A stretch of 47,170 nt of DNA from an uncultured Planctomycetia bacterium (lineage in GTDB: Bacteria; Omnitrophota; Gorgyraeia; 2-02-FULL-51-18): assembly GCA_964447745.1 (NCBI GenBank), contig CAYUTV010000001.1:20356-67525 (forward strand), given 5' to 3'. Below are positions 25,304-41,589 of the stretch, piece after piece. Below the pieces are notes generated by a model that made no database searches, was not told the origin of the DNA, and was given only the letters and a program-made list of their open reading frames with translations. Within the stretch, counting starts at the first letter, position 1; each line of letters opens with the position of its first letter. Position numbers and translations under genes: made by a program.

Positions 25304-26119
25304 TCAGAATCGGCTGATCATATCCCCGATTTTAATGTCCTTTTTCGTCCACTCAGGCAGTGTGACGGCGGCAGCGGTGTTGTTCTTCAGCTTCTCAATG
25401 ATCGCCTTGCCGATAATCTCATTGTCGCGCACGATATTAACAACCGAGTTCTTGATCAATCCGTCGTCTTTTCCGGCGTTGACGATGATGAAACCGTACA
25501 ATTTGTTGATGTGCTGGATGCGCACCGCTTTACCGGTGTCTTTTTGCACCACAATCTGCCCCAGCTTCACTGTATCAAGGTTTTGAATGATTTCCGCTTC
25601 ATTGGCAAAGCTCTCTTCGCTGACGCTTGATGAACTCTCTTCCACCTGGACGGTAGCGGCTTGAGCGTTTCTTTCCTCTTCGTAATGCTGGATGGTTCCC
25701 TTTAATTCTTCTTTTTCTTTTTCCAAAGCCCGGATCTTTTTATTGAGAGAATCGGCCGTCGCCTTCGCAGAATCCAGTTCCGCCATCAGAGTTGCATTCA
25801 ACGCTTTGGCGCTGTCAAAATCTCTGGCCTGATTGGACCACTGACTCTCCAGTTCTTTCAATCTTTTTTGGACGCCTTCCAATTCCTGATTCTTCAGAGA
25901 CAAATCCGACGAAATCGCCTCTTTCTCCTGCGTCAATGCGGTGATCTGCTTTTGCAGTTCACCCATTTCCAGGAGTTTCTGGGAAAGTTCGTTCTCTTTT
26001 TGAATTCTTAATTGTTTTTCGCGTTTGGAAGAGGTGTAGAAAGATACAAAGGTAAAAAAGAAAATCAGGCCTGCGCAGAGCGCAAAGAACATCACCCAAG
26101 TTCGCCTCGGAACGGCCAT
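25304..26119 (-). CDS. Hypothetical membrane-anchored coiled-coil protein with a small C-terminal beta domain
   Basis: One N-terminal TM helix (WVMFFALCAGLIFFFTFVSFY), ~150 aa of heptad-like E/K/L-rich sequence, then a ~90-aa Gly/Val/Ile-rich domain. The track start (TTG 26131) was replaced by ATG 26119, which has GAGGAG 4 nt upstream. Confidence 0.5.
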   Translation of the reverse strand: MAVPRRTWVMFFALCAGLIFFFTFVSFYTSSKREKQLRIQKENELSQKLLEMGELQKQITALTQEKEAISSDLSLKNQELEGVQKRLKELESQWSNQARDFDSAKALNATLMAELDSAKATADSLNKKIRALEKEKEELKGTIQHYEEERNAQAATVQVEESSSSVSEESFANEAEIIQNLDTVKLGQIVVQKDTGKAVRIQHINKLYGFIIVNAGKDDGLIKNSVVNIVRDNEIIGKAIIEKLKNNTAAAVTLPEWTKKDIKIGDMISRF

Positions 26120-26160
26120 GGATCTCCTCAAATAAGGTAAGACGTTAACTAATGAAAATT

Positions 26161-26238: not shown

Positions 26239-26676
26239 TCAGTCGGAAGAGTAGCTGGGCGGGGTGCCGCTACCAACGGCTTCCGGCATGGACTGTGTCA
26301 CATACCAGCTATTGCCGGATGGCGTGACCACATGGGCTCTAAACTTGGCATTAGAGCCATACCCCCCGTTGGAGGAAAGGAAGACCGTGTAAGACGCGGC
26401 CGAAAGATCGGCTTGAAAAATATTATTGATATTTGTTAGGCCGGACAGCGTACCTCCGCCCGAAGGAGCGTATGTGTTTTGATTCGCGCGATAGGCCTTC
26501 TGTTCGAGACGCAGCACATCCAAAATACGAAAGGCCTCACGATCCTCATTTTTCCTTATGAGGTTCTGGAAAGACGGTAGCGCGAGCCCCGTGATAATGG
26601 CGACTAGCGATATCGTCACCAGGAGCTCAACCAATGTCAAACCTCTGAACCGCTTTTTCATGAAGGAGCGCATCAA
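26239..26676 (-). CDS. Prepilin-type N-terminal cleavage/methylation domain protein (minor pilin/pseudopilin)
   Basis: KKRFRG/LTLVELLVTISLVAIITGLALP: class III signal with Gly-1 and Glu+5. ATGA overlap with the upstream gene. Confidence 0.75.
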   Translation of the reverse strand: MMRSFMKKRFRGLTLVELLVTISLVAIITGLALPSFQNLIRKNEDREAFRILDVLRLEQKAYRANQNTYAPSGGGTLSGLTNINNIFQADLSAASYTVFLSSNGGYGSNAKFRAHVVTPSGNSWYVTQSMPEAVGSGTPPSYSSD

Positions 26677-27074
26677 TCAAATCCTTTCGCTGCCATCGCG
26701 CGCACCCCGGAGGCATCAGGCAGGCCGATATCGATTCTGACGTCCGAACCGGGTTGCTGCGTCAAAGAAAACGTGGGCGGATTGGCGCCCATATCCAAAA
26801 AATAGACAGGCGGATCCCAACCGCTATTGGCAAAACTTAAACCTCCGCCCCAGTCGCTGGTCGTGTTTGTGCGAATGCGCCAATAAGCATCCACGATGCC
26901 GGCTTGAGCCGCATAAAAAGCCTTGAGCTTGGTAGAAGAAACACGATCGCTGAGACTGCGATAGTCAAACGACATATTTAAAAGAAGTGCAATAATACCC
27001 ATGGTTGCAATGATAAATATAATGGCTATGGTCAGGGCGATGCCTTTTTGCGAGTGAAGAGATATCGATCTCAT
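26673..27074 (-). CDS. PilX/GspK-like minor pilin (no Glu+5)
   Basis: HSQKG/IALTIAIIFIIATMGIIALL followed by KAFYAAQAGIVDAYWR, resembling the PilX N-terminal domain. It lacks the conserved Glu5. Confidence 0.6.
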   Translation of the reverse strand: MRSISLHSQKGIALTIAIIFIIATMGIIALLLNMSFDYRSLSDRVSSTKLKAFYAAQAGIVDAYWRIRTNTTSDWGGGLSFANSGWDPPVYFLDMGANPPTFSLTQQPGSDVRIDIGLPDASGVRAMAAKGFD

Positions 27075-27679
27075 TGCGTATTAATCCTTACAATAGAAAC
27101 CATTTCTGTCGAGGGCCCTTCCTGGTCCGTGGGACGCAGATTATAATAGTCTTGTTTTGATGCCAGTGTATAGGTAACCGTTAACTGCGATGTCGCATCG
27201 TTGTACACAAACGACGGCGAGATGGACTCCTGGCGCGAAAGCGGGTTTGAGGCCGTTGAGAAATCCGTTGTCGCTATAGTACTGGGGTCCGTCATAGGAC
27301 TGACCCCTAATATTCGTTCGTGGAGCCCGTTATTACTCCTTGTCGTAAAGGATATCCAGGTATCGTCTGAATAGTCATCGGCCGTATTTCTAGGATTTAA
27401 GTTGGAATCCACATCAAGACGCAGGTTGAGCTGTTGATAAGGCCATCCGCCGATTGTCTGCTCAATAACTGTGGCCCGGTTGGCCATTCTGGCCATCTTA
27501 AGCAATCTCTCTATGCCTATATGACCGTCCGCAAAATCCACACTGCTTGACCGTACGTCAAAATAATTGCGCGCGGCCGTCTCATAGGTGATTCCGGCGG
27601 CCAAAACGATCACACCAAAGAGCACCGTTGAAATAAGCATTTCTACGAGCGTTACGCCCTTCTGGTTTGATATTGTCAT
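27071..27679 (-). CDS. PilW-like minor pilin (prepilin-type N-terminal domain)
   Basis: MTISNQKG/VTLVEMLISTVLFGVIVLAAG. I prefer ATG 27679 (GGATGAG upstream, just after the upstream stop) over the track start at 27697. Confidence 0.65.
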   Translation of the reverse strand: MTISNQKGVTLVEMLISTVLFGVIVLAAGITYETAARNYFDVRSSSVDFADGHIGIERLLKMARMANRATVIEQTIGGWPYQQLNLRLDVDSNLNPRNTADDYSDDTWISFTTRSNNGLHERILGVSPMTDPSTIATTDFSTASNPLSRQESISPSFVYNDATSQLTVTYTLASKQDYYNLRPTDQEGPSTEMVSIVRINTQ

Positions 27680-27683
27680 ACGC

Positions 27684-28034
27684 TCATCCTGACCCATGCG
27701 TTGCGGCTGAGAAGGACCTATAATCTCTCCCTACCACGTCATTTGTCGTCCATTTTACCGGATACGACACCGTCCCATAACTGTCCACGGCATCAAATGA
27801 ATCCATTCCGTCCCGGATATACCATGAAGGATCTTCCCAATTTGCGGCGGTGACCTGCTGATATGCCGTCTCTAAAAGATTTCGACAGGAATTGTAACGC
27901 GCGACGTGTTCATTATTGATGAGCTGATTGACCGTGACGTCAATCGATGCATAAGTGGCAGCCATTCCGGCGATCAACACTCCGGCAATCATAATCTCCA
28001 TGAGCGAAAAACCGCGCTGGCTGCGTATCCTCAT
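27684..28034 (-). CDS. PilV-like minor pilin (prepilin-type N-terminal domain)
   Basis: MRIRSQRG/FSLMEIMIAGVLIAGMAATYA. ATGA overlap with the stop of fibre protein C. Confidence 0.7.
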   Translation of the reverse strand: MRIRSQRGFSLMEIMIAGVLIAGMAATYASIDVTVNQLINNEHVARYNSCRNLLETAYQQVTAANWEDPSWYIRDGMDSFDAVDSYGTVSYPVKWTTNDVVGRDYRSFSAATHGSG

Positions 28035-29260
28035 CGCGTCGTCTCCCGCGCCGCTTTGGCCTTTTCGAGCTCAACCAAACGGGTTTTTAAAACCTCGTTT
28101 CTCTGCTGCATTGCTTTGAGCGACGCTGCAAGAAACCCTACCGAGTCAGTAAGACTGATTCCTTTGCCATCCTCGCTCAATATCTCACGAGGCGCGTCCT
28201 CGGCAATAATACCCAAACGAAGTTTGTGGTTTTTGTCATCCGACAAATAATGGTAACGCACGACGTCGATGTTGCCTAGTTTTGTCAACAATGTGTTGTA
28301 GTCAGCCATACCTAAGGGCACGATGTCCTTTTTGTACTGAATGGAGCTAAACTGAGCCGCACCCTGCGCCTGAAGGTCACCATTCACGAGAAGCAATGTA
28401 TTCGCATTACCGGGCATGCCGCCGGTTCCGGGGGCACTTCTCGTACCGACAAGTACGGCCTGGGTTGATCCCGTCATAGATGCGCCGTCAACGCCCAAAT
28501 GGATCTCGCTGCCGTTAATGGTCAGCGGCACATAACTAACATCGCTGGGGTTTCCCATATATGCAACTCCGGTCTTAAACGCGCCGAAACAAGCTCTTTT
28601 CCCCGCATCGCCCACTTTGCTCGTATCATGTTCGGCGACAGCGTACACGTAGGCAATGTCACTACTTCCATAGGTGTAGGCGGGGCCGGGATTCGGACCT
28701 GTGTAATAGCCATGGTATGAAGGTAAAATATACAAATTCTTTAGCTTAATGCTCGGATCAACGCACCAGTCGCACACGCCCGGGCCTGCAACACCGCCGC
28801 CTCCTAATGGAAATTCGCTTTTACCGATGGTCACCTGGCCATACATATTTATTCGGAATGCATGCTGCCCGTTGGGACCTTTCATGCTCCCTGCTATAAA
28901 ATTAACGGGATTGGCGACAGCGTCTACAAAATTAGGTTCAACGCTAAGGTAGTGATCCCATTCGGGGAACCAGTCGAACCCTTCACCCTGCATATTCATG
29001 TTCCCCCAAATCACAACACTAACTGGCAATAGCGGTCCTCCGATAAACGACTCTCCGCTGGTTTCCGCGGGATAATCCGGATCAGTGTACCCCGGATGTA
29101 TTCCGGTATAATCCGTATCCACAAAAAAACGCTCGGCCGTAAGGTTCTCGTACTCCCCGTAAGGTATGGGATAGTAAGAAACGATACTCACATCATCGGC
29201 AAAGGCGCAGGATAGCGAAGTCATGAACATTAGAGTTAGCAAAAGGGTGCGCGGTGTCAT
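28031..29260 (-). CDS. Secreted fibre-like protein C with a C-terminal tail-fibre intramolecular-chaperone (Peptidase_S74-like) domain
   Basis: 409 aa. Signal peptide ..SLSCAFA/DDV. Gly/Pro/aromatic-rich body. C-terminal ~105 aa: SSIQYKKDIVPLGMADYNTLLTKLGNIDVVRYHYL..LGIIAEDAPREIL..VGFLAASLKAMQQRNEVLKTRLVELE. Confidence 0.7.
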   Translation of the reverse strand: MTPRTLLLTLMFMTSLSCAFADDVSIVSYYPIPYGEYENLTAERFFVDTDYTGIHPGYTDPDYPAETSGESFIGGPLLPVSVVIWGNMNMQGEGFDWFPEWDHYLSVEPNFVDAVANPVNFIAGSMKGPNGQHAFRINMYGQVTIGKSEFPLGGGGVAGPGVCDWCVDPSIKLKNLYILPSYHGYYTGPNPGPAYTYGSSDIAYVYAVAEHDTSKVGDAGKRACFGAFKTGVAYMGNPSDVSYVPLTINGSEIHLGVDGASMTGSTQAVLVGTRSAPGTGGMPGNANTLLLVNGDLQAQGAAQFSSIQYKKDIVPLGMADYNTLLTKLGNIDVVRYHYLSDDKNHKLRLGIIAEDAPREILSEDGKGISLTDSVGFLAASLKAMQQRNEVLKTRLVELEKAKAARETTR

Positions 29261-30300
29261 TTTTTTAAGTCCTCTATTCTTTTCTTGAGCTCCACGTTTT
29301 CTTCCTGTAGGGCCTTGGTCGATGCCATCAGGAAACCCATCGCGTCATTAATGCGTATAACTTTTTTGGAGTTGTCTGTCATTTCGTCAGGGGCTTCCTC
29401 GGCGATAAATCCCAGCGATTTCTTGGCGTCGGGAGAATCGCCTTTATAGCGAAAGGTCACCACATCAAGATTCTTTAATTTGCCGAGAATTTCATCATAG
29501 CCCTGTTTATCCAGGTAGGAAATGTCATACTTAGCGCTTCTGATGGAAGGCACGGTTAGACTCTGCGAGGCCACGTTTGTCGATGCATCCGATGCCTTGC
29601 CCACCACAACCCTCGCCGTATGGCCCGCGGGCAACGAAACGACCGGGTTTGCCTCTCCTCGAATGATCACCTGCCCTGCGATGGGGGCGTTGGTCTCGGG
29701 ATCCACCAAAAATCGAAGCGGCGCCCCGTCCAGATGCAGCGTTATATGCCTCTGATCTACCCCCGGCGTTCCCGTGACACCGGCAAAACCGTTATTCCTA
29801 TTATTGATATCATCGTTCGCATGAGTAATCTGGTAGGCGGCGCTATTAGGCAGATCGTTAGGGTTGCTGTAGCCTACTGCGCTTTTTGAGCGGATAGCCC
29901 ACGATGTTGAATTAAACGCAAAGTTGTCCGCATATTGCGACAATAGCGGAACAGCGTCCCATGAACCATTGACGCCATTTGCATCGGCCGTGACCCATCG
30001 CCTGGTTCCGCTTTCGTTATCCATCTCAGCAGAAGCACCATTGAATGAATACACGGAAAGATTTCCGCCTTGAGGGGATGCTAGGTTATCGTTATCACGA
30101 ACCTGAAGCTCGCCGTACATATGTATAGCGTTGTTTTTGACCTCTAATGCATTCCTGACCCTAAGGTCTTTATAAACACCGTTTGGCGAGGACATATATG
30201 TCGACACCTGCACATCATCCGCCATTGCATTGGGCGCCAGGAATAGAATGAATATGCTTATTTTGAGAACTCTTGAGATGTTAGTTAGCATAGGTGTCAT
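29257..30300 (-). CDS. Secreted fibre-like protein B with a C-terminal tail-fibre intramolecular-chaperone (Peptidase_S74-like) domain
   Basis: 347 aa. Signal peptide ..LAPNAMA/DDV. C-terminal ~96 aa: SIRSAKYDISYLDKQGYDEILGKLKNLDVVTFRYK..LGFIAEEAPDEM..MGFLMASTKALQEENVELKKRIEDLKK. An alternative start is ATG 30291. Confidence 0.7.
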   Translation of the reverse strand: MTPMLTNISRVLKISIFILFLAPNAMADDVQVSTYMSSPNGVYKDLRVRNALEVKNNAIHMYGELQVRDNDNLASPQGGNLSVYSFNGASAEMDNESGTRRWVTADANGVNGSWDAVPLLSQYADNFAFNSTSWAIRSKSAVGYSNPNDLPNSAAYQITHANDDINNRNNGFAGVTGTPGVDQRHITLHLDGAPLRFLVDPETNAPIAGQVIIRGEANPVVSLPAGHTARVVVGKASDASTNVASQSLTVPSIRSAKYDISYLDKQGYDEILGKLKNLDVVTFRYKGDSPDAKKSLGFIAEEAPDEMTDNSKKVIRINDAMGFLMASTKALQEENVELKKRIEDLKK

Positions 30301-31372
30301 CCTTTTTTAAAGATTTCTCCAAGCGACTGATCTCTTTTTCCATTTCCATGTTTTCTTGGATCAAACTTTTAATCGCCGCTATCACAAAAGCAATCTGATC
30401 GGACAAACTAACCGATTGATTGCTGTTTGAGAGAATCTCCGTTGGGGCTTCTTCGGCAATAATACCGGTATGCTTCTGCTCAGCTGCACTTTCATTTTTA
30501 TAGTGATACTGGACCATCTTGATATCCGCCATTTTCCTGGACATCAGAAGGTAATCGCCGGCATTCAACGGCTGAATATCTGTTTTTAAGGCGCGTGAAC
30601 TGGTATTGGTATAACTATGCGCCACAATATCCCCGTCAATATGAAGCTTGGACGTGGGCGCGGCCACACCCACACCTACGTTGCCCGTAGACGTGAGAGC
30701 CGGGACCGGGAGATATTCGCGATTATTCAATATAATGTACGGGCTTCCTTTGAAGAATATCGGCTGGAGAGCTCCTCCTTCCGTCGGGCGAGATTCAATG
30801 GTGGGAAACTCCTGATCAAGCGGATACCCATGCGCCCATGTGCCGGTATAATACCCGGTTTTAATCCTATAAACACCCGACAAATCAGTATTCGTGATTT
30901 GAAGCTCGTTAATAATAGCATCTTTTCTGATATCCAGCGGTGCACGAGGGCGATCTCCATTTGGCAGACCGACGCCCACCCAATGCTCGCCGGCCTCGGC
31001 GCCCGAGAAAGTTAATCCTTTGGCTACTTTTAAGCCCAGTCCTTGCTGTGCGCCGGCGTCCCGAGTGCCAACCATGAAATCATTATCGATAGTGACACTC
31101 GATCCATAGATGGACGCATATCCCAATGTGTAAAATTGCCCGCCGGAAATTTCGTTGTCGTAGAAAGTGAAACTACCCAAGGCGGCCTGAGCGGGGTTGG
31201 TCTCGTCCGGAGTCCGGCCGACTGTCAGGGAGTGAGTCACGCCAATAGTCTGATAATCGCCACTGGGCGAGGGGTGCAAATATTTTTGAACAACGTCGTC
31301 CGCGTACGCATTCACCGCAGCAAGCGTCACAATCAAACCAATGGTTAACTTAAAGGGTATATAGCGCATCAT
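30281..31372 (-). CDS. Secreted fibre-like protein A with a C-terminal tail-fibre intramolecular-chaperone (Peptidase_S74-like) domain
   Basis: Track ORF 30281-31558 trimmed to ATG 31372, which overlaps the upstream stop as TGATG and yields the signal peptide MMRYIPFKLTIGLIVTLAAVNAYA/DDV. C-terminal ~106 aa: SSRALKTDIQPLNAGDYLLMSRKMADIKMVQYHYK..GIIAEEAPTEIL..IAFVIAAIKSLIQENMEMEKEISRLE. Confidence 0.7.
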   Translation of the reverse strand: MMRYIPFKLTIGLIVTLAAVNAYADDVVQKYLHPSPSGDYQTIGVTHSLTVGRTPDETNPAQAALGSFTFYDNEISGGQFYTLGYASIYGSSVTIDNDFMVGTRDAGAQQGLGLKVAKGLTFSGAEAGEHWVGVGLPNGDRPRAPLDIRKDAIINELQITNTDLSGVYRIKTGYYTGTWAHGYPLDQEFPTIESRPTEGGALQPIFFKGSPYIILNNREYLPVPALTSTGNVGVGVAAPTSKLHIDGDIVAHSYTNTSSRALKTDIQPLNAGDYLLMSRKMADIKMVQYHYKNESAAEQKHTGIIAEEAPTEILSNSNQSVSLSDQIAFVIAAIKSLIQENMEMEKEISRLEKSLKKDDTYAN

Positions 31373-31779
31373 CAGTAACTCCCCGTTTCCGTGAGTACAC
31401 CGGCCTCGTTGATTGTGAATGTTTTGGTACCGCCTTCTCTCGTTGCGGTTGCCGTAAACGAATTCGAATCCGCCGTGATGTCGTAGGCATACGCCTGCCC
31501 CATCCCCAGCCAGCGGCTTGCGTAAGGATGATCGTAATTCGAATGATACTGTGCCCAATTCGAGCCTTCAAAAGGAACGTAACTGCCCGTTTCTTGGAAT
31601 GCCTTTTTCTCCACGCGATAAATAAACCAAAGCTTGTTGACAGCGTCCGCGGCTCTCGCCTGCTCCATGGATGCCGTATACACCGGGAACGATAAACCCG
31701 CGACAACTCCCAAAATAAGCAATGTCGCCATCAGCTCGGCTAGTGTATACCCCGTTCTGCTTATAAATAACTTAAGCAT
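31372..31779 (-). CDS. Type IV pilin-like protein (prepilin N-terminal domain), paralog 4
   Basis: Track ORF trimmed to ATG 31779: MLKLFISRTG/YTLAELMATLLILGVVAGLSFPVY. The C-terminus ..FTATATREGGTKTFTINEAGVLTETGSY parallels the other pilins. Confidence 0.75.
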   Translation of the reverse strand: MLKLFISRTGYTLAELMATLLILGVVAGLSFPVYTASMEQARAADAVNKLWFIYRVEKKAFQETGSYVPFEGSNWAQYHSNYDHPYASRWLGMGQAYAYDITADSNSFTATATREGGTKTFTINEAGVLTETGSY

Positions 31780-32194
31780 AGGTCCCCGATTCCGAAATAA
31801 CACCGGTTTGATTGATGCTAAATATTTTATTTCCCGGATTTCCGCGGGAAGCCGTTGCAGTGTAAGCGGTCGCGGGATTGCCCACAGTGGTAATCTGATA
31901 CGTATAGTATTGTGGGATGATATCGATGCGAAGCATCTGCTTGATATCTTCGATATCCGTTGTGGTCGCGCCCCAGCTCGGTTGATAAGCATCTTGGTTA
32001 AGCATGGTAATTTTTTGCGCGGCATGGATGGTCTGCAAAAAGGCTATCGCTTCACGGGAGCGGTTTCTCTCAATAACGCCCGTCAGCACCGGCACCGCAC
32101 AGGCCGTCATGATGCCCAGCGCCATCATCGTGACCAAGAGCTCCATGAGCGTAAAACCGTTTCTTTTTTTTCCGTTACTCATCATAATCTTCAT
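31772..32194 (-). CDS. Type IV pilin-like protein, paralog 3
   Basis: Track ORF trimmed to ATG 32194: MKIMMSNGKKRNG/FTLMELLVTMMALGIM. C-terminus ..YTATASRGNPGNKIFSINQTGVISESGTYA. Confidence 0.75.
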   Translation of the reverse strand: MKIMMSNGKKRNGFTLMELLVTMMALGIMTACAVPVLTGVIERNRSREAIAFLQTIHAAQKITMLNQDAYQPSWGATTTDIEDIKQMLRIDIIPQYYTYQITTVGNPATAYTATASRGNPGNKIFSINQTGVISESGTYA

Positions 32195-32612
32195 TGATGG
32201 TTCCGCCCTGGGTAATCCAATAAACTTTGTCTCCCCCCACACGCGTTGCGCTTGCCTCAAAACATTCGCCCGGCGGTCCGCATGTGGACGTTGTGATCGC
32301 GAAGTCGTAGTAATTTTCAACCAAATTCAAACCCATCGCAGCATTGATCGCGGAGATATCCGAGACGGTTGCGCTTGGGCTGGGCCAATACAGATCCGGT
32401 TGCATTTCACCAGCACCCGATCCGCTGGTTCTAAAACTCATTTCGGCGGAGTGAATCAGCATCAAAGCTGCGCGCGCTTCCTGTGCTCTCATGGATTCCA
32501 CATGACCGTGATACAGCGGGACGCTGGCTCCGGCCAGAATTCCCAGAACCGTCAATGTGATCACGACTTCCGTTAGATTAAATCCTCCGCTCATCAATTT
32601 TGGATAATTCAT
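32175..32612 (-). CDS. Type IV pilin-like protein, paralog 2
   Basis: MNYPKLMSGG/FNLTEVVITLTVLGILAGASVPLY. It has a short CGPPGEC loop. C-terminus ..ASATRVGGDKVYWITQGGTI. Confidence 0.75.
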   Translation of the reverse strand: MNYPKLMSGGFNLTEVVITLTVLGILAGASVPLYHGHVESMRAQEARAALMLIHSAEMSFRTSGSGAGEMQPDLYWPSPSATVSDISAINAAMGLNLVENYYDFAITTSTCGPPGECFEASATRVGGDKVYWITQGGTINEDYDE

Positions 32613-32736: not shown

Positions 32737-32769
32737 GAGCGGCCATAGCCTCTAAGGCCATGGCCGCTC
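32737..32769 (-). terminator. Rho-independent terminator (or attenuator) after the major pilin gene
   Basis: Minus-strand RNA: GAGCGGCCAUGGCC, UUAGA loop, GGCUAUGGCCGCUC (14-bp stem including one G.U), followed by UUAUUUGUAUCUU. It lies 35 nt past the pilin stop. Confidence 0.65.
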
Positions 32770-32804: not shown

Positions 32805-33236
32805 TTACGTTAACGTTCCGCCCACTGTACCAGCTTGGTTCAGCGTCACGGTCTGCGCGTTAGTAGGACCGTTACCGGTACCGTTTCCGGTCGCCGTTAG
32901 CGTAAACGTCGTGGCATCAAGGTTACCGATGGTATAGGTAAAGTACTTGGTCTGACCGCCGGAGGCAGCCGCGTTGGGGCAATAATCAAGATTGCAACCA
33001 CCCGCAGAAACATCCGCGCCAACATAGGTACCGTTATTCTGCGCAAAATAACGAAGCAGTGCTTCTCTCGTCGTGCCCAGCGCCTGCAGCGCTTCCTGTC
33101 TGTATGCACGAGTCACCTGCGCCTGATACACAGGAACAGCCAACCCGGCAAGCACGCCAACGATGATGATAACGATTAGAATTTCGATGAGCGTAAAACC
33201 TTTTTGGTTTGCTCTTTTCTTATTACTAATTAACAT
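32805..33236 (-). CDS. Major type IV pilin / pseudopilin
   Basis: MLISNKKRANQKG/FTLIEILIVIIIVGVLAGLAVPVYQ is a canonical class III signal (GFTLIE). It has its own strong promoter, a GGAGGA RBS and a downstream terminator. It also has a CNLDYC loop. Confidence 0.85.
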   Translation of the reverse strand: MLISNKKRANQKGFTLIEILIVIIIVGVLAGLAVPVYQAQVTRAYRQEALQALGTTREALLRYFAQNNGTYVGADVSAGGCNLDYCPNAAASGGQTKYFTYTIGNLDATTFTLTATGNGTGNGPTNAQTVTLNQAGTVGGTLT

Positions 33237-33336: not shown

Positions 33337-34554
33337 TTACCTTATAGCCGAGCTCAAGTTCAGAATGGGCAAGAACATTGCCACCACCAACACGCCGACA
33401 ACGCTCCCTACAATAAGCATGATTGCCGGCTCAATCAGCGTGCTTAGGCGATTCACGAAAACCTCAACGCGGTCTTCATAGAGCTTACCCACGCGGGTTA
33501 ACATATCGGCTAAACGACCGCTTTCTTCACCTACCTTGATCATGTGGATCATGATAGGCGAAAAAACACTCTGCCTTTCTAAGGAATCCGAAAAAGGTTT
33601 ACCCTGCTGAACATCGTTGGCAGTCGCCACCAAAGCGTCCTCGTACAGCGTATTACCCGCCGCGCGCGAAACAATATTCAAACTTTCCAGCAAATTGACG
33701 CCGCTCTGCACGAGAGTAGCCAGATTCATACACACACGGGCTAAAATAGAATCATTGATCATATTTCCTACGACCGGGATTTTAAGCACAAAGCGATCCG
33801 CGTTGCGCTTCCCCTGCGGCGTCCGGACATATTGGTGCGTTAGGTAAACAGCGCCGGAAACCATGAGAAAAATGAGGATAAAATAGTGCTGAATGAATTC
33901 GCTCACGTCGATAACGCCTTGTGTCAGCGCGGGGAGCTTAGCGTTAAATTTCTTAAACAGATTCGCAAAAATCGGGATGATTTTAAGCAAAAACACAAGA
34001 ATGGATCCGATCGCGACAAAAACGAGCACCGCCGGATAGACCAGCGCGGAGACAATCTTCTTTTTAAGATTAATACTCGCTTCAAGGTGACTGGCCAGCT
34101 GATAAAGAATAACCGGGAGATTACCGCTGGCTTCGCCCGCTTCTATGAGAAAAGGCCAGAGCGAAGGAAACACTCGCGGATTTTTGGCAATCGCATCCTT
34201 AAACGAGGAACCGGCCTTGATATCCAAAGCCAAATCCTTGAGCGCGTCTTCCAAACGCAAGCTCTCGCATTGGGTGCCTATGATTTCCACCGAACGCAGA
34301 AGCGGAATACCCGCTTCGATCAAAATGGCTGTCTGACGGCAAAAGAACAAGAGATCTTCGGTCTTAATACGGCGGTGTTTTTTCTGTTTCTTGGCCGCGA
34401 TTTCCTTAGACTGCTCGCCGGTTTCGACAATTTTTGTAATAATCAGGTTGTGGCTTTGTAAAATTTTGATAGCCGCGTATTCGTTGACGGCATCCTGCGT
34501 GCCCTGAACTACCTTTCCGCTGGAATCTCTGGCGGTATAAACGTAGGAGCCCAT
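33337..34554 (-). CDS. PilC/GspF-family inner-membrane platform protein
   Basis: 405 aa with two GspF-type repeats (..LLFFCRQTAILIEAGIPLLRSVEI.. and ..ARVCMNLATLVQSGVNLLESLNI..) and three TM segments. Confidence 0.9.
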   Translation of the reverse strand: MGSYVYTARDSSGKVVQGTQDAVNEYAAIKILQSHNLIITKIVETGEQSKEIAAKKQKKHRRIKTEDLLFFCRQTAILIEAGIPLLRSVEIIGTQCESLRLEDALKDLALDIKAGSSFKDAIAKNPRVFPSLWPFLIEAGEASGNLPVILYQLASHLEASINLKKKIVSALVYPAVLVFVAIGSILVFLLKIIPIFANLFKKFNAKLPALTQGVIDVSEFIQHYFILIFLMVSGAVYLTHQYVRTPQGKRNADRFVLKIPVVGNMINDSILARVCMNLATLVQSGVNLLESLNIVSRAAGNTLYEDALVATANDVQQGKPFSDSLERQSVFSPIMIHMIKVGEESGRLADMLTRVGKLYEDRVEVFVNRLSTLIEPAIMLIVGSVVGVLVVAMFLPILNLSSAIR

Positions 34555-34555
34555 C

Positions 34556-36301
34556 TCACCCGCCTCCCAATGTAACGCGCATTACTTCCTCGATGGAAGT
34601 ATCCCCCGCCACGACACGCCTGTAGGCGCGGTCCTCGAGTGTTTGCATCCCGTCCTTTTCGGCGGCGACGCGGATTTCGCTGGTGGACGCTTTTTGAAGC
34701 GTCAGCCGCGCGATCTCATCCGTCATTGGCATCAACTCATAAATCGCGAAACGGCCCAGGTAGCCGGTTCTGGCACATTGCTCGCATCCGACGGCCTTAT
34801 AAATCGTTTTGAGTCCCGGCTGAATCTTCGACAACACAGGCGGAATTTTATCCGTTGCCTGTTTACATTTGGGACATAGGCGCCTCATCAGGCGCTGAGC
34901 GACAACCATCAAGAGGGATGACGAAACATAAAAGGATTCGATGCCTATATCGTTCAAACGTGTGATCGCCGAAGGCGCGTCGTTTGTGTGAAGGGTGCTA
35001 AACACCAAGTGACCCGTCAGAGCGGCTCGCACACAGATTTGCGCCGTCTCGAGATCACGGATTTCACCGACCAGCATGACATCCGGATCTTGGCGTAAAA
35101 ACGCGCGCAAACCCGTCGCAAACGTCAAGCCGATGCCCGGCTTTACCTGAACCTGATTGATCCCGGTGATCTGATATTCGACAGGATCCTCGATGGTAAT
35201 GATATTTTTGTCGACTCCCTTGATCTCGTTCAGCGCGGAGTATAACGTTGTGGTTTTACCGCTGCCCGTGGGACCGGTCAACAGAATCATCCCGTAAGGT
35301 TTGCGTATGATTTTCCTAAAGACATCCAACTCCTTGTCGTCGAAACCCAGGAGCTCCAGGTCCAACGCCAGCTTATTCCTGTCCAAAATACGCAGAACCA
35401 CTTTTTCACCGTGCACCGTCGGTATCGTCGAAACACGGAAATCGATTTGCTTGCGGTCAATGGTCGCGGAGAAACTGCCGTCCTGAGGAAGACGCTTTTC
35501 GGCGATATCCATGCGGCAGAGAATCTTGATGCGTGACACTAGCGGCAAGATCATGGACTTCTCCGGTGGCGGAATGGCGACCAAGACACCGTCAATACGG
35601 AATCGTATGCTGATTTTTTCTGAGAACGGTTCGATATGAATATCACTCGCCCTGTCCTTAATTGCCTGTCTTAATATCAGGTCTGTTAGTTTTACAACCG
35701 GTGCTTTTTCGGCGCTCGCTACGATATCATCAAGCGTCAAACGCTCTTGTTGGGGTGGCTGAGCGACCAACTCACGCGGCCCGTCCAACGATACATAGGA
35801 TGCGTCGATGGCGCTTTTTAACATGCCGCCTTCTCCATAGAACTCGCTGATCGCCTGCTCGATTTCAGACTGCGTGGAGATAAGACGGTTGATACGGTAA
35901 CCTGTCATTTTGTACAGATTATCCAACAGCACGATGTCCAACGGATCCGCGAAAGCAACCGTCAGCGTATTCGCGTGAAGCGAGATGGGAATCAGGCAGT
36001 TCTTACGGGCAAACTCTTCGGGGATAATCTTGTCGAGGGCCTGATCGGGGATGGGCTTAAGTAGCCCCTTATCCTTACCGGCATAGAGTATGTGTAGCTG
36101 TTTAGCCAGCACACTGGCGATGTTTTTATCGGAAACAAACCCCAGCCGGCATAGAATACCGCCCAGGGGTTCATGAGGCGATCGTTTTTGCTCCTCAAGA
36201 GCCTGCCCCAGCTGTTCTTTGGTGATTAATCCTTCCCGAAGCAGGATATCGCCCAGCTTAATATGCTGCTTGATATCCTCGGTCGGTTTATAAGCGCTCA
36301 T
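34556..36301 (-). CDS. PilB/GspE-family secretion ATPase with an MshEN-like N-terminal domain
   Basis: 581 aa. Walker A GPTGSGKTT, Asp box VGEIRD, His box GHLVFSTLHTN, tetracysteine CPKC..CEQC. The N-terminus carries a tandem xLGxxLxxxGxxxxxxLxxxLxxQ motif. Confidence 0.92.
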   Translation of the reverse strand: MSAYKPTEDIKQHIKLGDILLREGLITKEQLGQALEEQKRSPHEPLGGILCRLGFVSDKNIASVLAKQLHILYAGKDKGLLKPIPDQALDKIIPEEFARKNCLIPISLHANTLTVAFADPLDIVLLDNLYKMTGYRINRLISTQSEIEQAISEFYGEGGMLKSAIDASYVSLDGPRELVAQPPQQERLTLDDIVASAEKAPVVKLTDLILRQAIKDRASDIHIEPFSEKISIRFRIDGVLVAIPPPEKSMILPLVSRIKILCRMDIAEKRLPQDGSFSATIDRKQIDFRVSTIPTVHGEKVVLRILDRNKLALDLELLGFDDKELDVFRKIIRKPYGMILLTGPTGSGKTTTLYSALNEIKGVDKNIITIEDPVEYQITGINQVQVKPGIGLTFATGLRAFLRQDPDVMLVGEIRDLETAQICVRAALTGHLVFSTLHTNDAPSAITRLNDIGIESFYVSSSLLMVVAQRLMRRLCPKCKQATDKIPPVLSKIQPGLKTIYKAVGCEQCARTGYLGRFAIYELMPMTDEIARLTLQKASTSEIRVAAEKDGMQTLEDRAYRRVVAGDTSIEEVMRVTLGGG

Positions 36302-38034
36302 TTAGGTCTCGTTTTAAGATTTCCCTGGCTAAACATTTCCAATGCGTTGGCCATCTCCTGCTCCATTCCTTCCGGAGCCGCTGCGGCCGCTGTCTTGGCC
36401 TTTGTGCGGTATATACCCAGCTCATCGCCGATGACTACATGACGCTTAATCTCTGTCTGTTCCTGTGCGTTCAGGGTTCTTTCCAATTCACCGTCGCGGA
36501 ACGCATCCATCATTCTTGCGGAAGCGGGTTCTTTTCCGGCTGTCGTTATTTCCGAAGGAACGGTAAAGCTGTCATTTCCTTCGACGATGTGCGGCGTAAT
36601 AAAAATCAATAACTCTCTGTCCAAATCCCCGCGATCCTTGTAATTGAACGCCTTTCCGAAGATCGGCAAATCTCCCAAGCCCGGGATTTTCTTCATGGCT
36701 GTGCTGTAATCGCTGTCAATCAGACCGCCAAGAACAAGAGTCTCGTTATTTTTAACACGTGCCAGAGTGCGTACGGATCGTGTCGTGGGATCAAGGAATG
36801 TCGACGGAAAAAAGGAAGAGGCCACCGCCGTCGTGACGGAGGGCTCGACATAGAGATTGATGGATTGGTCTTGGTTGATCTGCGGTGTCATCTTGAGAAT
36901 GATGCCCGTAGGCGCTCTCTCGGCCGTATTGGTTGTCTGAGCACTCTGACCTTCGCTGGCGGTTGTCACCACCTGATTGGCGATGGCCGTATTCGTCACG
37001 AGCTTGATCTGCGCGGCTTCGTTATTCATCGTCAGAACGCGGGGGCGCGCCAGGATTTTGGTTTTTGTGTCTGATGTGATCATTCTTAATGTCACTGTGA
37101 GATTGCTCGCACTAACGGTGCCAAGCGTGATATCGCGGTTTTCGTTAACGCCCGTTCGGCTTCCTGACAAAACCTGGAAAGGAAAACCGGTTTCCTTGCT
37201 GCCGCCGGTTAAGGACCCCAGCGCACCGTTGCTGCCGCCCCAATCAAAACCGTGATCCTCCAGAAGATTTCGGCGGACCTCCATAATATGAACTTCAATC
37301 ATCACCTGTTTAGAGGGAACGTCGATTTTTTCCAAAACCTTTTCGATTTGTTTGAGTGTTTGAGGCGTGTCCGTGACGATCAGACTATTGGTGTTTAGAT
37401 CTATCGCTACTTTCCCCTTATCGGAAAGCATGCTACCAATCAAGGTATCCACGCCTCTTCCCGTGATAACGTTTTCTTTGGAAGAAGAACTCTTGGAACT
37501 GGCCCCGGTGGAAGATGAGGAACTCCCTCCTGAGTCGGAGCTCGCCGTTGCGGTCGTCGTGTCGATGGCGTTAATATCGCTGGCAGCCGTGAGCTCTTGG
37601 ATGATGCTGCCTCCGGCGAGGTCAATGGGCGACGATGACAGGCGTGTGTATTTCAGAGTAAATACGCGTGTCTCAGTGCCGGTATCGGTGATTCCTGCCG
37701 GATAAATAATATATAGGTTGTCGTTTTTCTTTTCATAGCGCAGGCCGTTCGCGTTAACGATGCTGTCGAGGGCGTCTTGCACCGTCACGTCTTCAAAGTA
37801 GACGGTAACTTTCTTCACCTCCACCCCCTCGCTGGTCACAAAGTTGAGAGCGGACTGTTGAGATAAAATCTTGAGGACGTTCTTAATAGGCGCGTCCTCA
37901 AAATCCATGGAGATGAGTTGTTCGGCGGGTTCCTCATACGCCACCGCAACGGGCGGCGCAACGCTCACGAGGCAAAACGCGACCAACGTTATCGCGGCTA
38001 TCTTTTGAAGTGATTTCATGGCATCCTCTCTCAT
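36298..38034 (-). CDS. Secretin (PilQ/GspD family)
   Basis: 578 aa with a signal peptide. N0-like domain ISMDFEDAPIKNVLKILSQQSALNFV. C-terminal secretin motif TLVLGGLIDS..IPGLGDLPIFGKAF..RELLIFITPHIV. Confidence 0.88.
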   Translation of the reverse strand: MREDAMKSLQKIAAITLVAFCLVSVAPPVAVAYEEPAEQLISMDFEDAPIKNVLKILSQQSALNFVTSEGVEVKKVTVYFEDVTVQDALDSIVNANGLRYEKKNDNLYIIYPAGITDTGTETRVFTLKYTRLSSSPIDLAGGSIIQELTAASDINAIDTTTATASSDSGGSSSSSTGASSKSSSSKENVITGRGVDTLIGSMLSDKGKVAIDLNTNSLIVTDTPQTLKQIEKVLEKIDVPSKQVMIEVHIMEVRRNLLEDHGFDWGGSNGALGSLTGGSKETGFPFQVLSGSRTGVNENRDITLGTVSASNLTVTLRMITSDTKTKILARPRVLTMNNEAAQIKLVTNTAIANQVVTTASEGQSAQTTNTAERAPTGIILKMTPQINQDQSINLYVEPSVTTAVASSFFPSTFLDPTTRSVRTLARVKNNETLVLGGLIDSDYSTAMKKIPGLGDLPIFGKAFNYKDRGDLDRELLIFITPHIVEGNDSFTVPSEITTAGKEPASARMMDAFRDGELERTLNAQEQTEIKRHVVIGDELGIYRTKAKTAAAAAPEGMEQEMANALEMFSQGNLKTRPK

Positions 38035-38357
38035 TTAAGTGTCAGCATAAATTCTTGATCTTGATCGATGTATTTCGCTCGAACGCCTTCCTTGGTGACT
38101 TCCAAAATTTTGACGTCGTTCAAAACACTGCCCGCCTGAACGACTTTGCCGTTAATAACGGCCTGTGGTTGCTTCGCATTCCACACAAGTCCCTGCAATA
38201 CGAGCGGACTCTTTCTGGTCGCTGTCTGTGATTGTTTGGGCTGGGGCTGGTTCACAAGTCCGAACGGGTCCCTGAACTTCTGTCCCGCGTATTCCACGGC
38301 ATAGACATCGCAAGCCAACAGAAGTCCCACAATCAATACCGCGGCAGCCCTCACCAT
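38031..38357 (-). CDS. PilP-like lipoprotein
   Basis: 108 aa with lipobox LLAC. DPF motif and a C-terminal beta domain LQGLVWNAKQPQAVINGKVVQAGSVLNDVKILEV. Sits between the PilO-like gene and the secretin. Confidence 0.55.
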   Translation of the reverse strand: MVRAAAVLIVGLLLACDVYAVEYAGQKFRDPFGLVNQPQPKQSQTATRKSPLVLQGLVWNAKQPQAVINGKVVQAGSVLNDVKILEVTKEGVRAKYIDQDQEFMLTLK

Positions 38358-38881
38358 TAGACGGTCACCATCGGCCGGTATCCGGCCAGTCTAATCACGA
38401 CTTTCAATACTCTCTCCTTCGTTTCGTTATCAATAATGGTGGTAACATCCAAATTCTGAATCTTGAGAAACTGCTGATAACTCTCAATGCGGCTGATAAA
38501 ATCTCCTATCAAATGGTATTTTCCAAATGCCTGCAATCCAAACGTAACACGTTCATAATCGCCCACGACCTCCACCTGACCCGGAGTCACCGAGTTCAGC
38601 GCCACGCCGGATTTCTGTGCCATCTGGTTCAAGTCCTGGATGATCACGGAAACTTGGTTTTTTTGGATGAATTGGGGCTCATAGGCCTTCATCGCATTTT
38701 GTATCGCCGAAATCTCGCCCAAGATCGCCGACTTGTTCCGCTCTTCTGAGAGCTGGTGAGCGACTCTCCTGGACCCCTTCAGGAACGGCTGCAATACAAA
38801 CCCGTTGGCAATAATCATGGCGAATATAAAAACGCCGATCAACAGAACCGTTATCTGATTGAGCTTGCGACTCATAATCAA
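38357..38881 (-). CDS. PilO/GspM-like bitopic assembly protein
   Basis: 174 aa with one N-terminal TM helix, a coiled segment and a ~90-aa C-terminal domain. The call rests on position and topology only. Confidence 0.5.
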   Translation of the reverse strand: MIMSRKLNQITVLLIGVFIFAMIIANGFVLQPFLKGSRRVAHQLSEERNKSAILGEISAIQNAMKAYEPQFIQKNQVSVIIQDLNQMAQKSGVALNSVTPGQVEVVGDYERVTFGLQAFGKYHLIGDFISRIESYQQFLKIQNLDVTTIIDNETKERVLKVVIRLAGYRPMVTV

Positions 38882-40562: not shown

Positions 40563-40991
40563 CTATTTTGTGACGGGGTCTGAGAGGATGGTTTCGTCGG
40601 GTTTCTCAAGGACAAATTCGGGGTCTATCAAGGGGTCGTAACCTCCACGAACGGGTATCGGGAACGTGACAGTCTCAAAAAGACCGGTCGCGGTTCTGGC
40701 GATCGCATTGCCTAAGCCATAAATAGGGCCCCAGCTCAACGCCGCCACCCCACCCTCTGTTTTATCGATGTGTTCTATGCCTTTAAAAATTTCTAGCCAA
40801 CCCATGGTCAGGTTAGACAAACCGCGCCCGAGCTTACGGTTCATTCCCGCCGAAGTCTCCGCTCTATCCGCTTTGGCGCCTTTGATGGCCGGCGGCGGCA
40901 TCTTAACGCTGTAATCGCTTGCCTGGGCGGGGCATGCAAAGAGAATTCCCACGACGACCATCACTGCCGGCAAATTAGCGAGATTCTTCAT
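40563..40991 (-). CDS. Secreted small protein resembling the exosortase-system-associated TIGR04073 family
   Basis: Signal peptide MKNLANLPAVMVVVGILFACPAQA. The KLGRGLSNLTMGWLEIFKGI motif is what I recall for TIGR04073. The start could be 41009 rather than 40991. The family call is from memory. Confidence 0.45.
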   Translation of the reverse strand: MKNLANLPAVMVVVGILFACPAQASDYSVKMPPPAIKGAKADRAETSAGMNRKLGRGLSNLTMGWLEIFKGIEHIDKTEGGVAALSWGPIYGLGNAIARTATGLFETVTFPIPVRGGYDPLIDPEFVLEKPDETILSDPVTK

Positions 40992-41580: not shown

Positions 41581-41589
41581 GAAATTATT

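Follow-up and report, generated by a model that had tools for sequence, protein, structure and literature searches.

What three proteins that carry a phage-type chaperone domain are doing in the midst of a type IV pilin operon is the question raised by a 47,170-nucleotide stretch of DNA (hereafter, the window) from an uncultured Planctomycetia bacterium. The three open reading frames (ORFs) concerned, termed A, B, and C, span positions 28031-31372 of the window on the minus strand and encode proteins of 363, 347, and 409 aa, respectively. The findings firmly support A, B, and C being cellular, Sec-exported proteins with an intact Peptidase_S74 (S74)/intramolecular chaperone (ICA) module that have long been maintained by selection within a type IV filament gene cluster, and equally firmly support their not being phage debris. 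Such an S74 fibre trio within a minor-pilin operon suggests an adhesive fibre, borne or exported by a pilus, of a kind not described before.

Behind its signal peptide, each of the three proteins presents a Tyr-rich motif at the N-terminus and then a beta-rich body of divergent sequence, and it ends in a Peptidase_S74 domain. Protein A (30281..31372, minus strand; trio position 1) was defined on the basis of its ORF, a PF13884 match, an AlphaFold2 (AF2) model, and its place in a tree; B (29257..30300, minus strand; position 2) on the basis of its ORF, a PF13884 match, and a hidden Markov model (HMM) of the N-terminal motif; and C (28031..29260, minus strand; position 3) on the basis of all three of the latter together with an AF2 model. 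The Sec-type signal peptides, judged by eye from a basic n-region, a hydrophobic core, and an AxA/DD site (the slash marking the cleavage point), end in AYA/DD in A (residues 1-24), AMA/DD in B, and AFA/DD in C. In A, the N-terminal motif is degenerate (DDVVQKYLHPSPSGDYQTIGV) and is followed by the beta-rich body and by a VGVGVAAPTSKL loop motif upstream of the S74 domain; this loop is of the VG-x-G-x-x-P-x-x-x-L type seen ahead of S74 domains. The monomer body was modelled by AF2 at low confidence. The N-terminal motif reads DDVQVSTYMSSPNGVYKDLRV in B and takes the near-canonical form DDVSIVSYYPIPYGEYENL in C. A lipoprotein signal was considered for C and rejected, as 'SLSC' is not a lipobox.

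Profile matches to PF13884 (Peptidase_S74; gathering cut-off, 22 bits) were obtained for A (36.6 bits, residues 258-310), B (31.0 bits, residues 256-308), and C (26.6 bits, residues 305-363), with no Pfam or NCBIfam match being found beyond S74 in any of the three. The domain sits at the C-terminus in each case. In A, it runs from Ser258 to the end of the protein (30281..30601, minus strand), as seen with Pfam, AF2, Foldseek, and PHROGs; in B, it begins at Ser252 (nt 29257-29547) and in C at Ser305 (nt 28031-28348). The catalytic Ser-Lys dyad is present as S258/K263 in A, S252/K257 in B, and S305/K310 in C, within the sequences SSRALK, SIRSAK, and SSIQYK, each then followed by x-D-I. The Ser and the Lys five residues on are invariant in an alignment of nine orthologues, and the S-x4-K-x-D-I dyad was found in 19 of the 21 members of seven trios. 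The spacing of the dyad in A, B, and C equals that of SDxxxK, the reported S74 motif (PMC10769870). In the position-2 fibre gene of one related locus (L143, 10001-11026), a Cys occupies the position of the S74 nucleophile (TCSRAYK), such that this copy would be either a Cys-Lys variant or an inactive chaperone, while in gene 2 of another (L144, 2630-3703) the S-x4-K motif was not found by pattern.

The AF2 models agree with this assignment. The C-terminal domains of A and C were predicted with scores of 87-98 in the predicted local distance difference test (pLDDT), each with a long terminal helix; the S74 domain of A reached 87-97 and ends in a helix spanning residues 323-362, while residues 300-409 of C reached 95-98. 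When the model of A was compared to the PDB using Foldseek, the top match was the ICA domain of MyRF (7dc3; E 2.7e-4, probability 1.0, TM-target 0.60), followed by weak matches to the tips of Bdellovibrio fibres, to the chaperone-bearing L-shaped tail fibre of T5, and to the chaperone of the K1F endosialidase. Comparison with BFVD yielded 56 matches at E<=1e-3, mostly S74, endosialidase-chaperone, and tail-fibre proteins, with the compact alignments (~105-120 columns, root mean square deviation 2.5-4.5 A) covering the C-terminal domain of A. The ICA fold, namely a beta-rich core and a long C-terminal helix, is thus seen in this domain by both AF2 and Foldseek. PDB sequence searches with a nine-sequence profile and with the C-terminal domain of A returned nothing meaningful, the link of this domain to solved ICA structures having come from fold comparison alone. 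As judged from sequence and model, then, the C-terminal module is a genuine S74/intramolecular-chaperone domain. Indeed, the expectations of the initial annotation held for the proteins themselves, namely, a Sec signal peptide ahead of DD, PF13884 at each C-terminus, a Ser with a Lys five residues later in all three, and a cassette-like layout, as the alignment of nine orthologues revealed both termini to be conserved and the bodies to be divergent.

Examination of the region surrounding A, B, and C revealed ten genes that run unbroken on the minus strand from 32612 to 26239, overlapping or abutting one another, in the order of three pilin-like genes, the three fibre genes, and four minor pilin-like genes. 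The pilin-like genes (32175-32612, 31772-32197, and 31372-31797, minus strand; 145, 141, and 141 aa) open the operon, each product presenting a G/[FY]xLxE prepilin motif or an N_methyl match. The last of these joins A through a TGATG junction at 31372, as read directly in the DNA, while the ORF coordinates place a 20-nt overlap between A and B (30281-30300) and 4-nt overlaps between B and C (29257-29260) and between C and the first minor pilin gene (28031-28034). The fibre genes are, therefore, translationally coupled to their pilin neighbours on both sides, and the positions, lengths, and overlapping junctions given for the three ORFs in the initial annotation stand. The four minor pilins, all on the minus strand, comprise a 116-aa GspI/PilV-sized protein (27684-28034), a 208-aa GspJ/PilW-sized protein (27071-27697), a 133-aa GspK/PilX-like protein (26673-27074), and a 145-aa GspH/FimU-like protein (26239-26676), as supported by N_methyl matches, a prepilin motif scan, and a weak GspH match. 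The GspK/PilX-like protein lacks Glu5, as do GspK/PilX-type tip subunits. Of the four, the first three named recur behind the trio in every related locus.

Relatives of the fibre genes were sought in one genome per species and in a profile search of 1.84 billion representative proteins. Full-length relatives sharing 28-30% identity were identified in two metagenome-assembled genomes (MAGs) labelled 'uncultured Planctomycetia bacterium' (loci L001 and L002), with a further relative lying on a 3.5-kb contig of a third MAG (L003). Synteny of the window with L001 and L002 starts at the genes encoding an M48 peptidase, an SNase, and a BFN nuclease, from where both loci run on in the order PilM/N, PilO, secretin, PilB, PilC, pilins, three S74 genes, three minor pilins, and a coiled-coil protein. 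In L002, the major pilin gene is duplicated in tandem, the two copies being almost identical (8415-9337). The profile search returned 45 matches at E<=1e-30 and 1,050 at E<=1e-10, with many of the top matches being 300-420-aa proteins that align at both termini; word-indexed homologue searches returned 3-5 matches each, and no contig on record matched A in an exact-sequence search.

In this manner, the arrangement was found to recur in at least seven other loci, namely L001, L002, L003, L136/L137, L142, L143, and L144, in the common order of machine, pilins, three fibre genes, and three core minor pilins, with protein identity over the related loci being 22-32%. The fibres measure 332, 330, and 408 aa in L136/L137, a close relative of the window, 372, 406, and 407 aa in L142, 381, 341, and 408 aa in L143, where the genomic flanks differ, and 387, 357, and 366 aa in L144. 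The number of fibre genes in the related loci is always exactly three, as is the number of core minor pilins that follow them, i.e., an I-like (~116-148 aa), a J-like (~180-218 aa), and a K-like (~115-151 aa) protein. Glu5 is missing from the K-like subunit in the three loci read in sequence, i.e., the window, L001, and L002. The coiled-coil protein closes the cluster in L001, L002, L136, L142, and L144 (phmmer E 6e-52 and 2.9e-52). The same arrangement was seen in all five retrievals that yielded a contig reaching past the fibre genes, several other contigs being too short to reveal neighbouring genes.

A neighbour-joining tree grouped the fibre proteins by trio position and not by genome; positions 1 and 3 formed clean clades, position 2 formed two subclades, and A fell with the position-1 orthologues. 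Because grouping is by position rather than by genome, the triplication is, on the strength of these sequences, older than the divergence of these genomes, with each copy having been retained. Together with variants of the N-terminal motif that are specific to each position (see below), such positional orthology argues for non-redundant, selected roles of the three proteins. Conserved synteny of this kind also strengthens the proposal, made when the locus was first read, that the fibres may be displayed at a pilus tip or exported through the co-encoded secretin.

S74 domains are most familiar from the tail fibres and tailspikes of phages, and PHROGs families and a few phage tail proteins do match the C-termini of A, B, and C. 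Such matches would suit a degraded prophage or tailocin tail-fibre module that had landed in a pilus operon. Their placement along the proteins, however, speaks otherwise. The PHROGs tail-fibre families align chiefly to residues ~248-356 of A, the exceptions being one weak alignment in A at residues 225-259 and one in B that starts at residue 141. When C was compared by tblastn with 50,697 phage genomes, all matches fell within residues 239-406, with seven of eight lying in 305-406 and the best reaching back to 239, while residues 1-258 of A, comprising its N-terminus and body, found no match in the 50,697 phage records. As far as sequence comparison can tell, only the S74 module has phage relatives, the similarity being almost entirely C-terminal. 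A protein-profile scan of IMG/VR gave no relative, and the core of the N-terminal motif occurred in none of 2.9 million IMG/VR viral contigs. Throughout the 47-kb window, genes for phage structural proteins, terminases, and integrases are absent. Sec signal peptides and an arrangement that is ancient, vertically conserved, and marked by positional orthology likewise stand against a phage origin of the trio. A prophage remnant was accordingly rejected on the basis of the IMG/VR and phage-record negatives and the housekeeping flanks of the cluster, and this explanation can be regarded as effectively refuted. The earlier judgement that the locus is not a prophage fragment is upheld by the same flanks, by the phage-free N-terminus and body of A, and by the absence of the motif from IMG/VR, and the outcome that had been named as fatal to the proposal, i.e., homologues travelling with phage modules, was not what was found, since in all five contig retrievals of sufficient length and in three species genomes they travel with pilin genes.

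The Tyr-rich motif that directly follows the signal-peptide cleavage site has the canonical form E-x-[IL]-T-[IL]-T-T-Y-Y-P-[SA]-P-[YF]-G-x-Y-x-x-L. It is most readily recognised by HMM in C (E 2.8e-10), less so in B (E 2e-4), and is degenerate in A. Variants conserved across loci mark each trio position, these being [KRL]-S-T-E-Y-x-S-P-x-G-x-Y at position 1, T-x-Y-[FY]-x-A-P-x-G-x-Y at position 2, and Y-P-x-P-Y-G-E-Y at position 3. The idea that the motif is a prepilin signal was rejected, as it follows a classical Sec AxA site and contains no G/FxxxE motif.

A wider family was sought with a degenerate DNA pattern for the core T-Y-Y-P-[SA]-P-[YF]-G-x-Y. The core was found in at least 120 metagenome contigs (L016-L135; e.g., L019 7261-8742, L022 78-1298, and L115 3821-7042), and in 122 distinct examples the positions not fixed by the pattern proved to be conserved as well (E, 83%; [IL], 84% and 95%; T, 78% and 85%; L, 80%). 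Among the matches listed, the motif was recovered within an ORF in 119 of 120 metagenome loci, S74 domains, counted by HMM, were present in about 8% of the N-motif proteins, and Cys-rich tails (…CCR, …CCK, …CCRF) in about 30 of 134; one N-motif protein contains YadA-head repeats. The ORFs range up to ~630 aa, the motif follows a signal peptide in the examples inspected, and the genes often occur as tandem paralogues. No Pfam or NCBIfam model covers the motif. Judging from these sequences, the N-motif proteins form a large, uncurated secreted family with swappable C-termini. In one locus (L034), three pilin genes are followed by an N-motif/S74 fibre gene, and in one further locus an N-motif protein is encoded directly after PilB-PilC. 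The motif is not a property of all S74 triplets, since unrelated S74 proteins of ~525-600 aa that lack it occur in tandem triplets in an Aminicenantes UBA6072 genome (L008, 8846-15884) and in a Multivoraceae MAG (L012, 8415-13440). In L008, a tetratricopeptide repeat (TPR)+secretin-like gene comes immediately after the triplet, with no pilins in view; L008 may be an independent S74 fibre-secretin association and a second 'always three' case.

The machine that would assemble the filament is encoded upstream of the ten-gene operon, at 33337-40446 on the minus strand, with the major pilin gene in between. Pfam assigns a PilC/GspF protein (33337-34554; T2SSF), a PilB/GspE protein with an MshEN domain (34556-36301; T2SSE+MshEN), a secretin (36298-38034; Secretin), a PilO/GspM-like protein (38357-38881; PilO), and a PilM-PilN-like fusion (38878-40446; PilM_2), with a small protein of 108 aa (38031-38357) being encoded between the secretin and the PilO/GspM-like gene. 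With an extension ATPase, a platform, alignment proteins, a secretin, and prepilin-type subunits in a single cluster, and prepilin motifs in six ORFs by pattern scan, the system belongs to the type IV filament class. Its subclass is less clear-cut. The NCBIfam equivalogs for PilB (602.8 vs. a cut-off of 675.65) and GspE (593.4 vs. 630.25) both fall just below threshold, as does that for GspF (350 vs. 424), and models of the type II secretion system (T2SS; GspG, GspE, GspF, and GspM) score about equal to those of type IV pili (T4P) for the pilin, the ATPase, the platform, and PilO. Neither the PilT retraction ATPase nor the prepilin peptidase PilD was found in the 47-kb window. With both ATPase equivalogs sub-threshold and these two genes not found there, the machine falls into no specific subclass by these measures, and NCBIfam scores place it between the type IVa pilus (T4aP) and the T2SS. 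Weak NCBIfam matches to the Akkermansia Amuc_1098 and Amuc_1101 families and to a Verrucomicrobial cassette pilin suggest a system of the Planctomycetes-Verrucomicrobia-Chlamydiae (PVC) type, which would fit a host from the PVC group. The taxonomic placing of the host draws on these weak family matches and on the labels given to related MAGs.

Between the machine and the ten-gene operon lies the gene of a probable major pilin or pseudopilin (32805..33236, minus strand; 143 aa), with an N_methyl match, a ComP_DUS-type fold, and a GspG-like N-terminus. A strong hairpin (32737..32769, minus strand) with a 15-bp stem containing 10 GC pairs and followed by a T-rich tail, recognised by consensus scan only, stands between this gene and the minor-pilin/fibre operon and probably acts in termination or attenuation, keeping expression of the major subunit high relative to that of the minor ones. 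At the other end, the cluster is closed by a membrane-anchored coiled-coil protein with a small C-terminal beta domain (25304..26131, minus strand), whose family matches are weak SMC-like coiled-coil ones only. The N-terminal MshEN-type motif of the extension ATPase (34556-36301), which binds cyclic di-GMP (c-di-GMP), scored 64.6 bits (NCBIfam NF053729; cut-off, 38). Because of this motif, assembly of the filament, and hence deployment of the fibres, is probably under c-di-GMP control.

Taken together, these features lead, tentatively, to the view that A, B, and C are quite possibly subunits of short trimeric fibres, or spikes, of the phage type that belong in function to the co-encoded machine, cleave themselves, dock on the minor-pilin tip, are carried through the secretin, and are shown as an adhesive tip. 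Cleavage by signal peptidase at AxA/DD would bare the Tyr-rich motif at the mature N-terminus. In the periplasm, the S74 (ICA) domains would join three chains and fold the fibre, then cut themselves off at the conserved Ser through the Ser-Lys dyad, so uncovering the distal receptor-binding end. The N-terminal motifs would next dock the mature fibre on the I-, J-, and K-like minor pilins that prime and cap the filament, and PilB-driven polymerisation of pilins would carry the tip complex, together with the fibre, out through the secretin. There, the fibre would serve as an adhesive tip, the role played by PilY1 in canonical T4aP.

Several observations make such a course of events credible. T4aP operons carry the tip adhesin PilY1 at the position held here by the fibre genes, and no PilY1-like gene was found in the 47-kb window, in line with what had been noted at the outset. 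Given this shared operon position and the absence of PilY1, the fibre genes may be a substitute for it. With an N-terminus that is conserved, a body that evolves fast, and a C-terminal chaperone that can be removed, the proteins have what appears to be the polarity of phage fibres and of the mosaic adhesive trimeric (MAT) fibres of Bdellovibrio, and, by analogy with these, the N-terminus would attach and the distal end would bind the target. Secretin channels have dimensions that encompass a width of ~40 A. The S74-type trimeric beta-helix of Bd3182 is ~40 A across (PMC10769870), and with a helix of this width, passage of the fibre through the secretin is physically plausible.

Other observations weigh against tip display. 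The AF2 monomer bodies and N-motifs of A and C were modelled with low confidence (pLDDT ~40-70), and the predicted trimerisation, cleavage, docking, and export are all inferred. A three-fold symmetric fibre has no obvious fit to an asymmetric I-J-K tip, unless it is a heterotrimer. Because PilT is missing from the window and because T2SS and T4P models score alike, the filament may be a short pseudopilus instead of a surface pilus. Among the matches listed, pilin-like genes were found in only 6 of 118 N-motif loci; in five of these six, which speaks in favour of a link to pili, the pilin gene lies <=650 bp away on the same strand, a reversed-sequence control having given 0, with this enrichment involving small numbers and a rough background estimate. 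A locus with an N-motif/S74 gene (L145) has no pilin neighbour in view. Since most N-motif genes are not beside pilin genes, the motif could have a function unrelated to the pilus, for instance in nucleating trimers or in anchoring to the envelope.

The symmetry mismatch would disappear were A, B, and C to form one heterotrimeric A:B:C fibre in which each N-terminal peptide plugs into a different I-, J-, or K-like tip subunit. The constant presence of three fibre genes and three core minor pilins, the ancient positional orthology, translational coupling, and the S74 triplets of the unrelated family in L008 and L012 all fit this elaboration, while body lengths that differ by up to ~80 residues within some trios do not, and it is considered improbable. 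If correct, it would describe an adaptor, matched in symmetry, by which a type IV filament is fitted with a receptor-binding spike of the phage type, and the N-motif would be a general 'load onto the pilus tip' signal for S74 fibres, YadA-head repeats, and Cys-rich domains alike.

Tip display by a pilus has also to be weighed against three accounts that place the fibres elsewhere. They could be exoprotein cargo of a T2SS-like piston or of a secreting pilus, in which case the machine would pick out matured trimers in the periplasm, perhaps through the same N-terminal signal, and expel them via the secretin, after which they would be free or bind again to the surface, much as TcpF/CofJ or the classical T2SS substrates encoded beside gsp genes. 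The roughly equal scores of the pilin, ATPase, platform, and PilO on T2SS models, the lack of PilT in the window, and the secretin gene that adjoins the S74 triplet of L008 where no pilins are in view are all compatible with export of this sort, as is the dispersed N-motif family, whose many C-termini resemble a repertoire of cargo sharing one export signal; TcpF, too, is encoded in a pilus operon and loses its export signal on release. Yet the genes are flanked by pilin genes on one side and minor-pilin genes on the other, with translational coupling to both, a PilY1-type position that is unusual for T2SS substrates, and the strict pairing of three fibres with three minor pilins in every locus suggests a stoichiometric complex more than cargo of an enzyme-like sort. 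Cargo is, as such, a rather unlikely description of A, B, and C.

Alternatively, there may be no physical link to the pilus, the proteins being MAT-like surface fibres that travel by another route, bind some other element of the surface, and are encoded in the operon for co-regulation in, e.g., attachment or predation. The MAT fibres of Bdellovibrio are indeed surface proteins, they are not reported to be encoded in pilus operons, and pilin genes adjoin only a minority of N-motif genes. Co-regulation, however, rarely preserves order, overlaps, and copy number across proteins sharing 22-32% identity and across differing neighbourhoods, and no alternative dedicated exporter is encoded nearby in the window, making this explanation distinctly unlikely. 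Finally, Sec-exported proteins encoded within the operon of the machine, with bodies as short as about 225-285 residues after processing, might never leave the cell but act instead as periplasmic parts of that machine, be it a trimeric plug, a spacer, or a secretin-associated factor. Here, the pattern of fast-diverging bodies between conserved ends is that of exposed receptor-binding proteins, S74 is otherwise known from exposed fibres, spikes, and MyRF, and other T4P and T2SS machines need no such component; this last account is, therefore, very unlikely.

Beyond the cluster, the rest of the window (~30 kb) contains housekeeping genes, including those for arginine decarboxylase, lipoate ligase, the glycine cleavage system, BioD/A/F/B, and ROK proteins, as well as for glutamine synthetase III (GS-III), AcrB/OEP, APRT, RmuC, and others. 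Directly upstream of the PilM/N gene, a gene for a secreted nuclease of the staphylococcal type (SNase) and a bifunctional-nuclease (BFN) gene are found (40975-42162). This placement is kept in L001 (668-1795), and several of the pilins give ComP_DUS-type Pfam matches; on these grounds a DNA-related role of the filament, in uptake or degradation, is conceivable. Elsewhere (43728-44807), one protein joins a ParA/MinD-type ATPase with a glycogen-binding CBM48/AMPK1_CBM domain at its C-terminus, an unusual pairing.

Full-text literature searches, Planctomycetes included, turned up no account of a T4P/T2SS-class system that encodes or uses S74 fibres. S74 fibres in bacteria (Bdellovibrio MAT) are already known, as are pilus-tip adhesins and pilus-exported proteins (PilY1, TcpF/CofJ). 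This cellular precedent in Bdellovibrio, the antiquity and positional orthology of the trio, and the reach of the N-terminal motif into a much larger family all lie outside the initial annotation. The locus bears on how the phage-like S74 fibres of bacteria reach the surface and on what anchors them, the genetic link being here hard-wired and conserved, as well as on the nature of the tip of type IV filaments in lineages without PilY1 and on the recognition of non-pilin passengers by T4P and T2SS. With a short Tyr-rich N-terminal signal encoded beside its presumptive receptors, i.e., three small minor pilins, the locus also offers a compact, testable system despite its hosts being uncultured. 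Should the wider N-motif family take the same route, its motif would be a new sorting signal and its members a modular repertoire of adhesins or effectors among environmental bacteria, and the family could prove to be more important than the locus itself.

Comparison with characterised systems places A, B, and C near several of them. The C-terminal ~100 residues correspond in PF13884 membership, dyad spacing, and fold to the phage S74 domains of K1F endosialidase (3GW6) and T5 pb1 (4UW8) and to the ICA domain of MyRF (7DC3), and in all of these proteins, as in A, B, and C, the domain sits at the C-terminus. Unlike the phage proteins, A, B, and C have unrelated upstream parts and Sec signal peptides, and are encoded in a chromosomal pilus operon rather than in a tail module.

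PilY1/PilC of T4aP, encoded with FimU-PilVWX(E), presumably rests on the priming complex of minor pilins at the tip and is, like A, B, and C, a non-pilin, Sec-exported protein encoded inside a minor-pilin operon. The three proteins described here, however, contain no beta-propeller or von Willebrand factor A (vWA) domain, the cluster contains no large candidate ORF, and three small paralogues with a self-cleaving chaperone take the place of one ~1,000-aa PilY1. The likeness is positional and functional only.

With the T2SS, the cluster shares the make-up of the GspK-I-J(-H) pseudopilus, i.e., I-, J-, K-, and H-like minor pilins, a K-like subunit without Glu5, and a GspG-like major subunit, in addition to a secretin and GspE/F-like and GspM-like parts; that the T2SS expels folded periplasmic proteins through its secretin can be counted as a further likeness. 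The cluster departs from the T2SS in that no equivalog cut-off is reached, gene order is of the PilM/N/O type, and the K-like subunit is far smaller than GspK. Genes of T2SS substrates, moreover, are not normally known to stand between pseudopilin genes.

Among cellular fibres, the closest in build are the MAT fibres of Bdellovibrio bacteriovorus, which include an S74 subgroup, e.g., Bd3182 (Caulton et al., 2024; PMC10769870). Like A, B, and C, these are cellular, non-phage, Sec-exported proteins, with a conserved N-terminal module after the signal peptide, a variable fibre and tip, and a C-terminal S74 domain with S-x4-K; as in the N-motif family, other members lack S74 and carry swapped tips. 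Bd1334 and Bd2133 were, moreover, weak Foldseek matches to the model of A. MAT proteins are larger, at ~900-1,000 residues in the examples given and with an N-terminal domain of ~130 aa, as compared to 330-410 aa and a motif of ~25 aa in the trio proteins. MAT genes are not reported in pilus operons, and the authors of that study leave the anchor open while raising a possible interplay with type IV pili (PMC10769870). MAT proteins are represented in the PDB by C-terminal parts only, and A, B, and C, with a signal peptide and a shorter conserved motif, are not filed as MAT members.

TcpF and CofJ of type IVb (T4b) pili are Sec-exported proteins that are encoded in pilus operons and exported through the secretin by pilus extension, with a mature N-terminal segment containing a critical Tyr by which the exoprotein, as a trimer, hooks onto the trimeric tip minor pilin (PMC9565799, PMC10120004, PMC6048534). 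Their sequences and folds are unrelated to those of A, B, and C, they contain no S74 domain, and TcpF is released; TcpB and CofB are, furthermore, homotrimeric T4b minor pilins, whereas here the tip would consist of three different small minor pilins. Still, A, B, and C likewise present a conserved Tyr-rich motif at the predicted mature N-terminus and have their genes in a pilus operon. By analogy only, TcpF and CofJ thus appear to offer the closest mechanistic precedent for A, B, and C.

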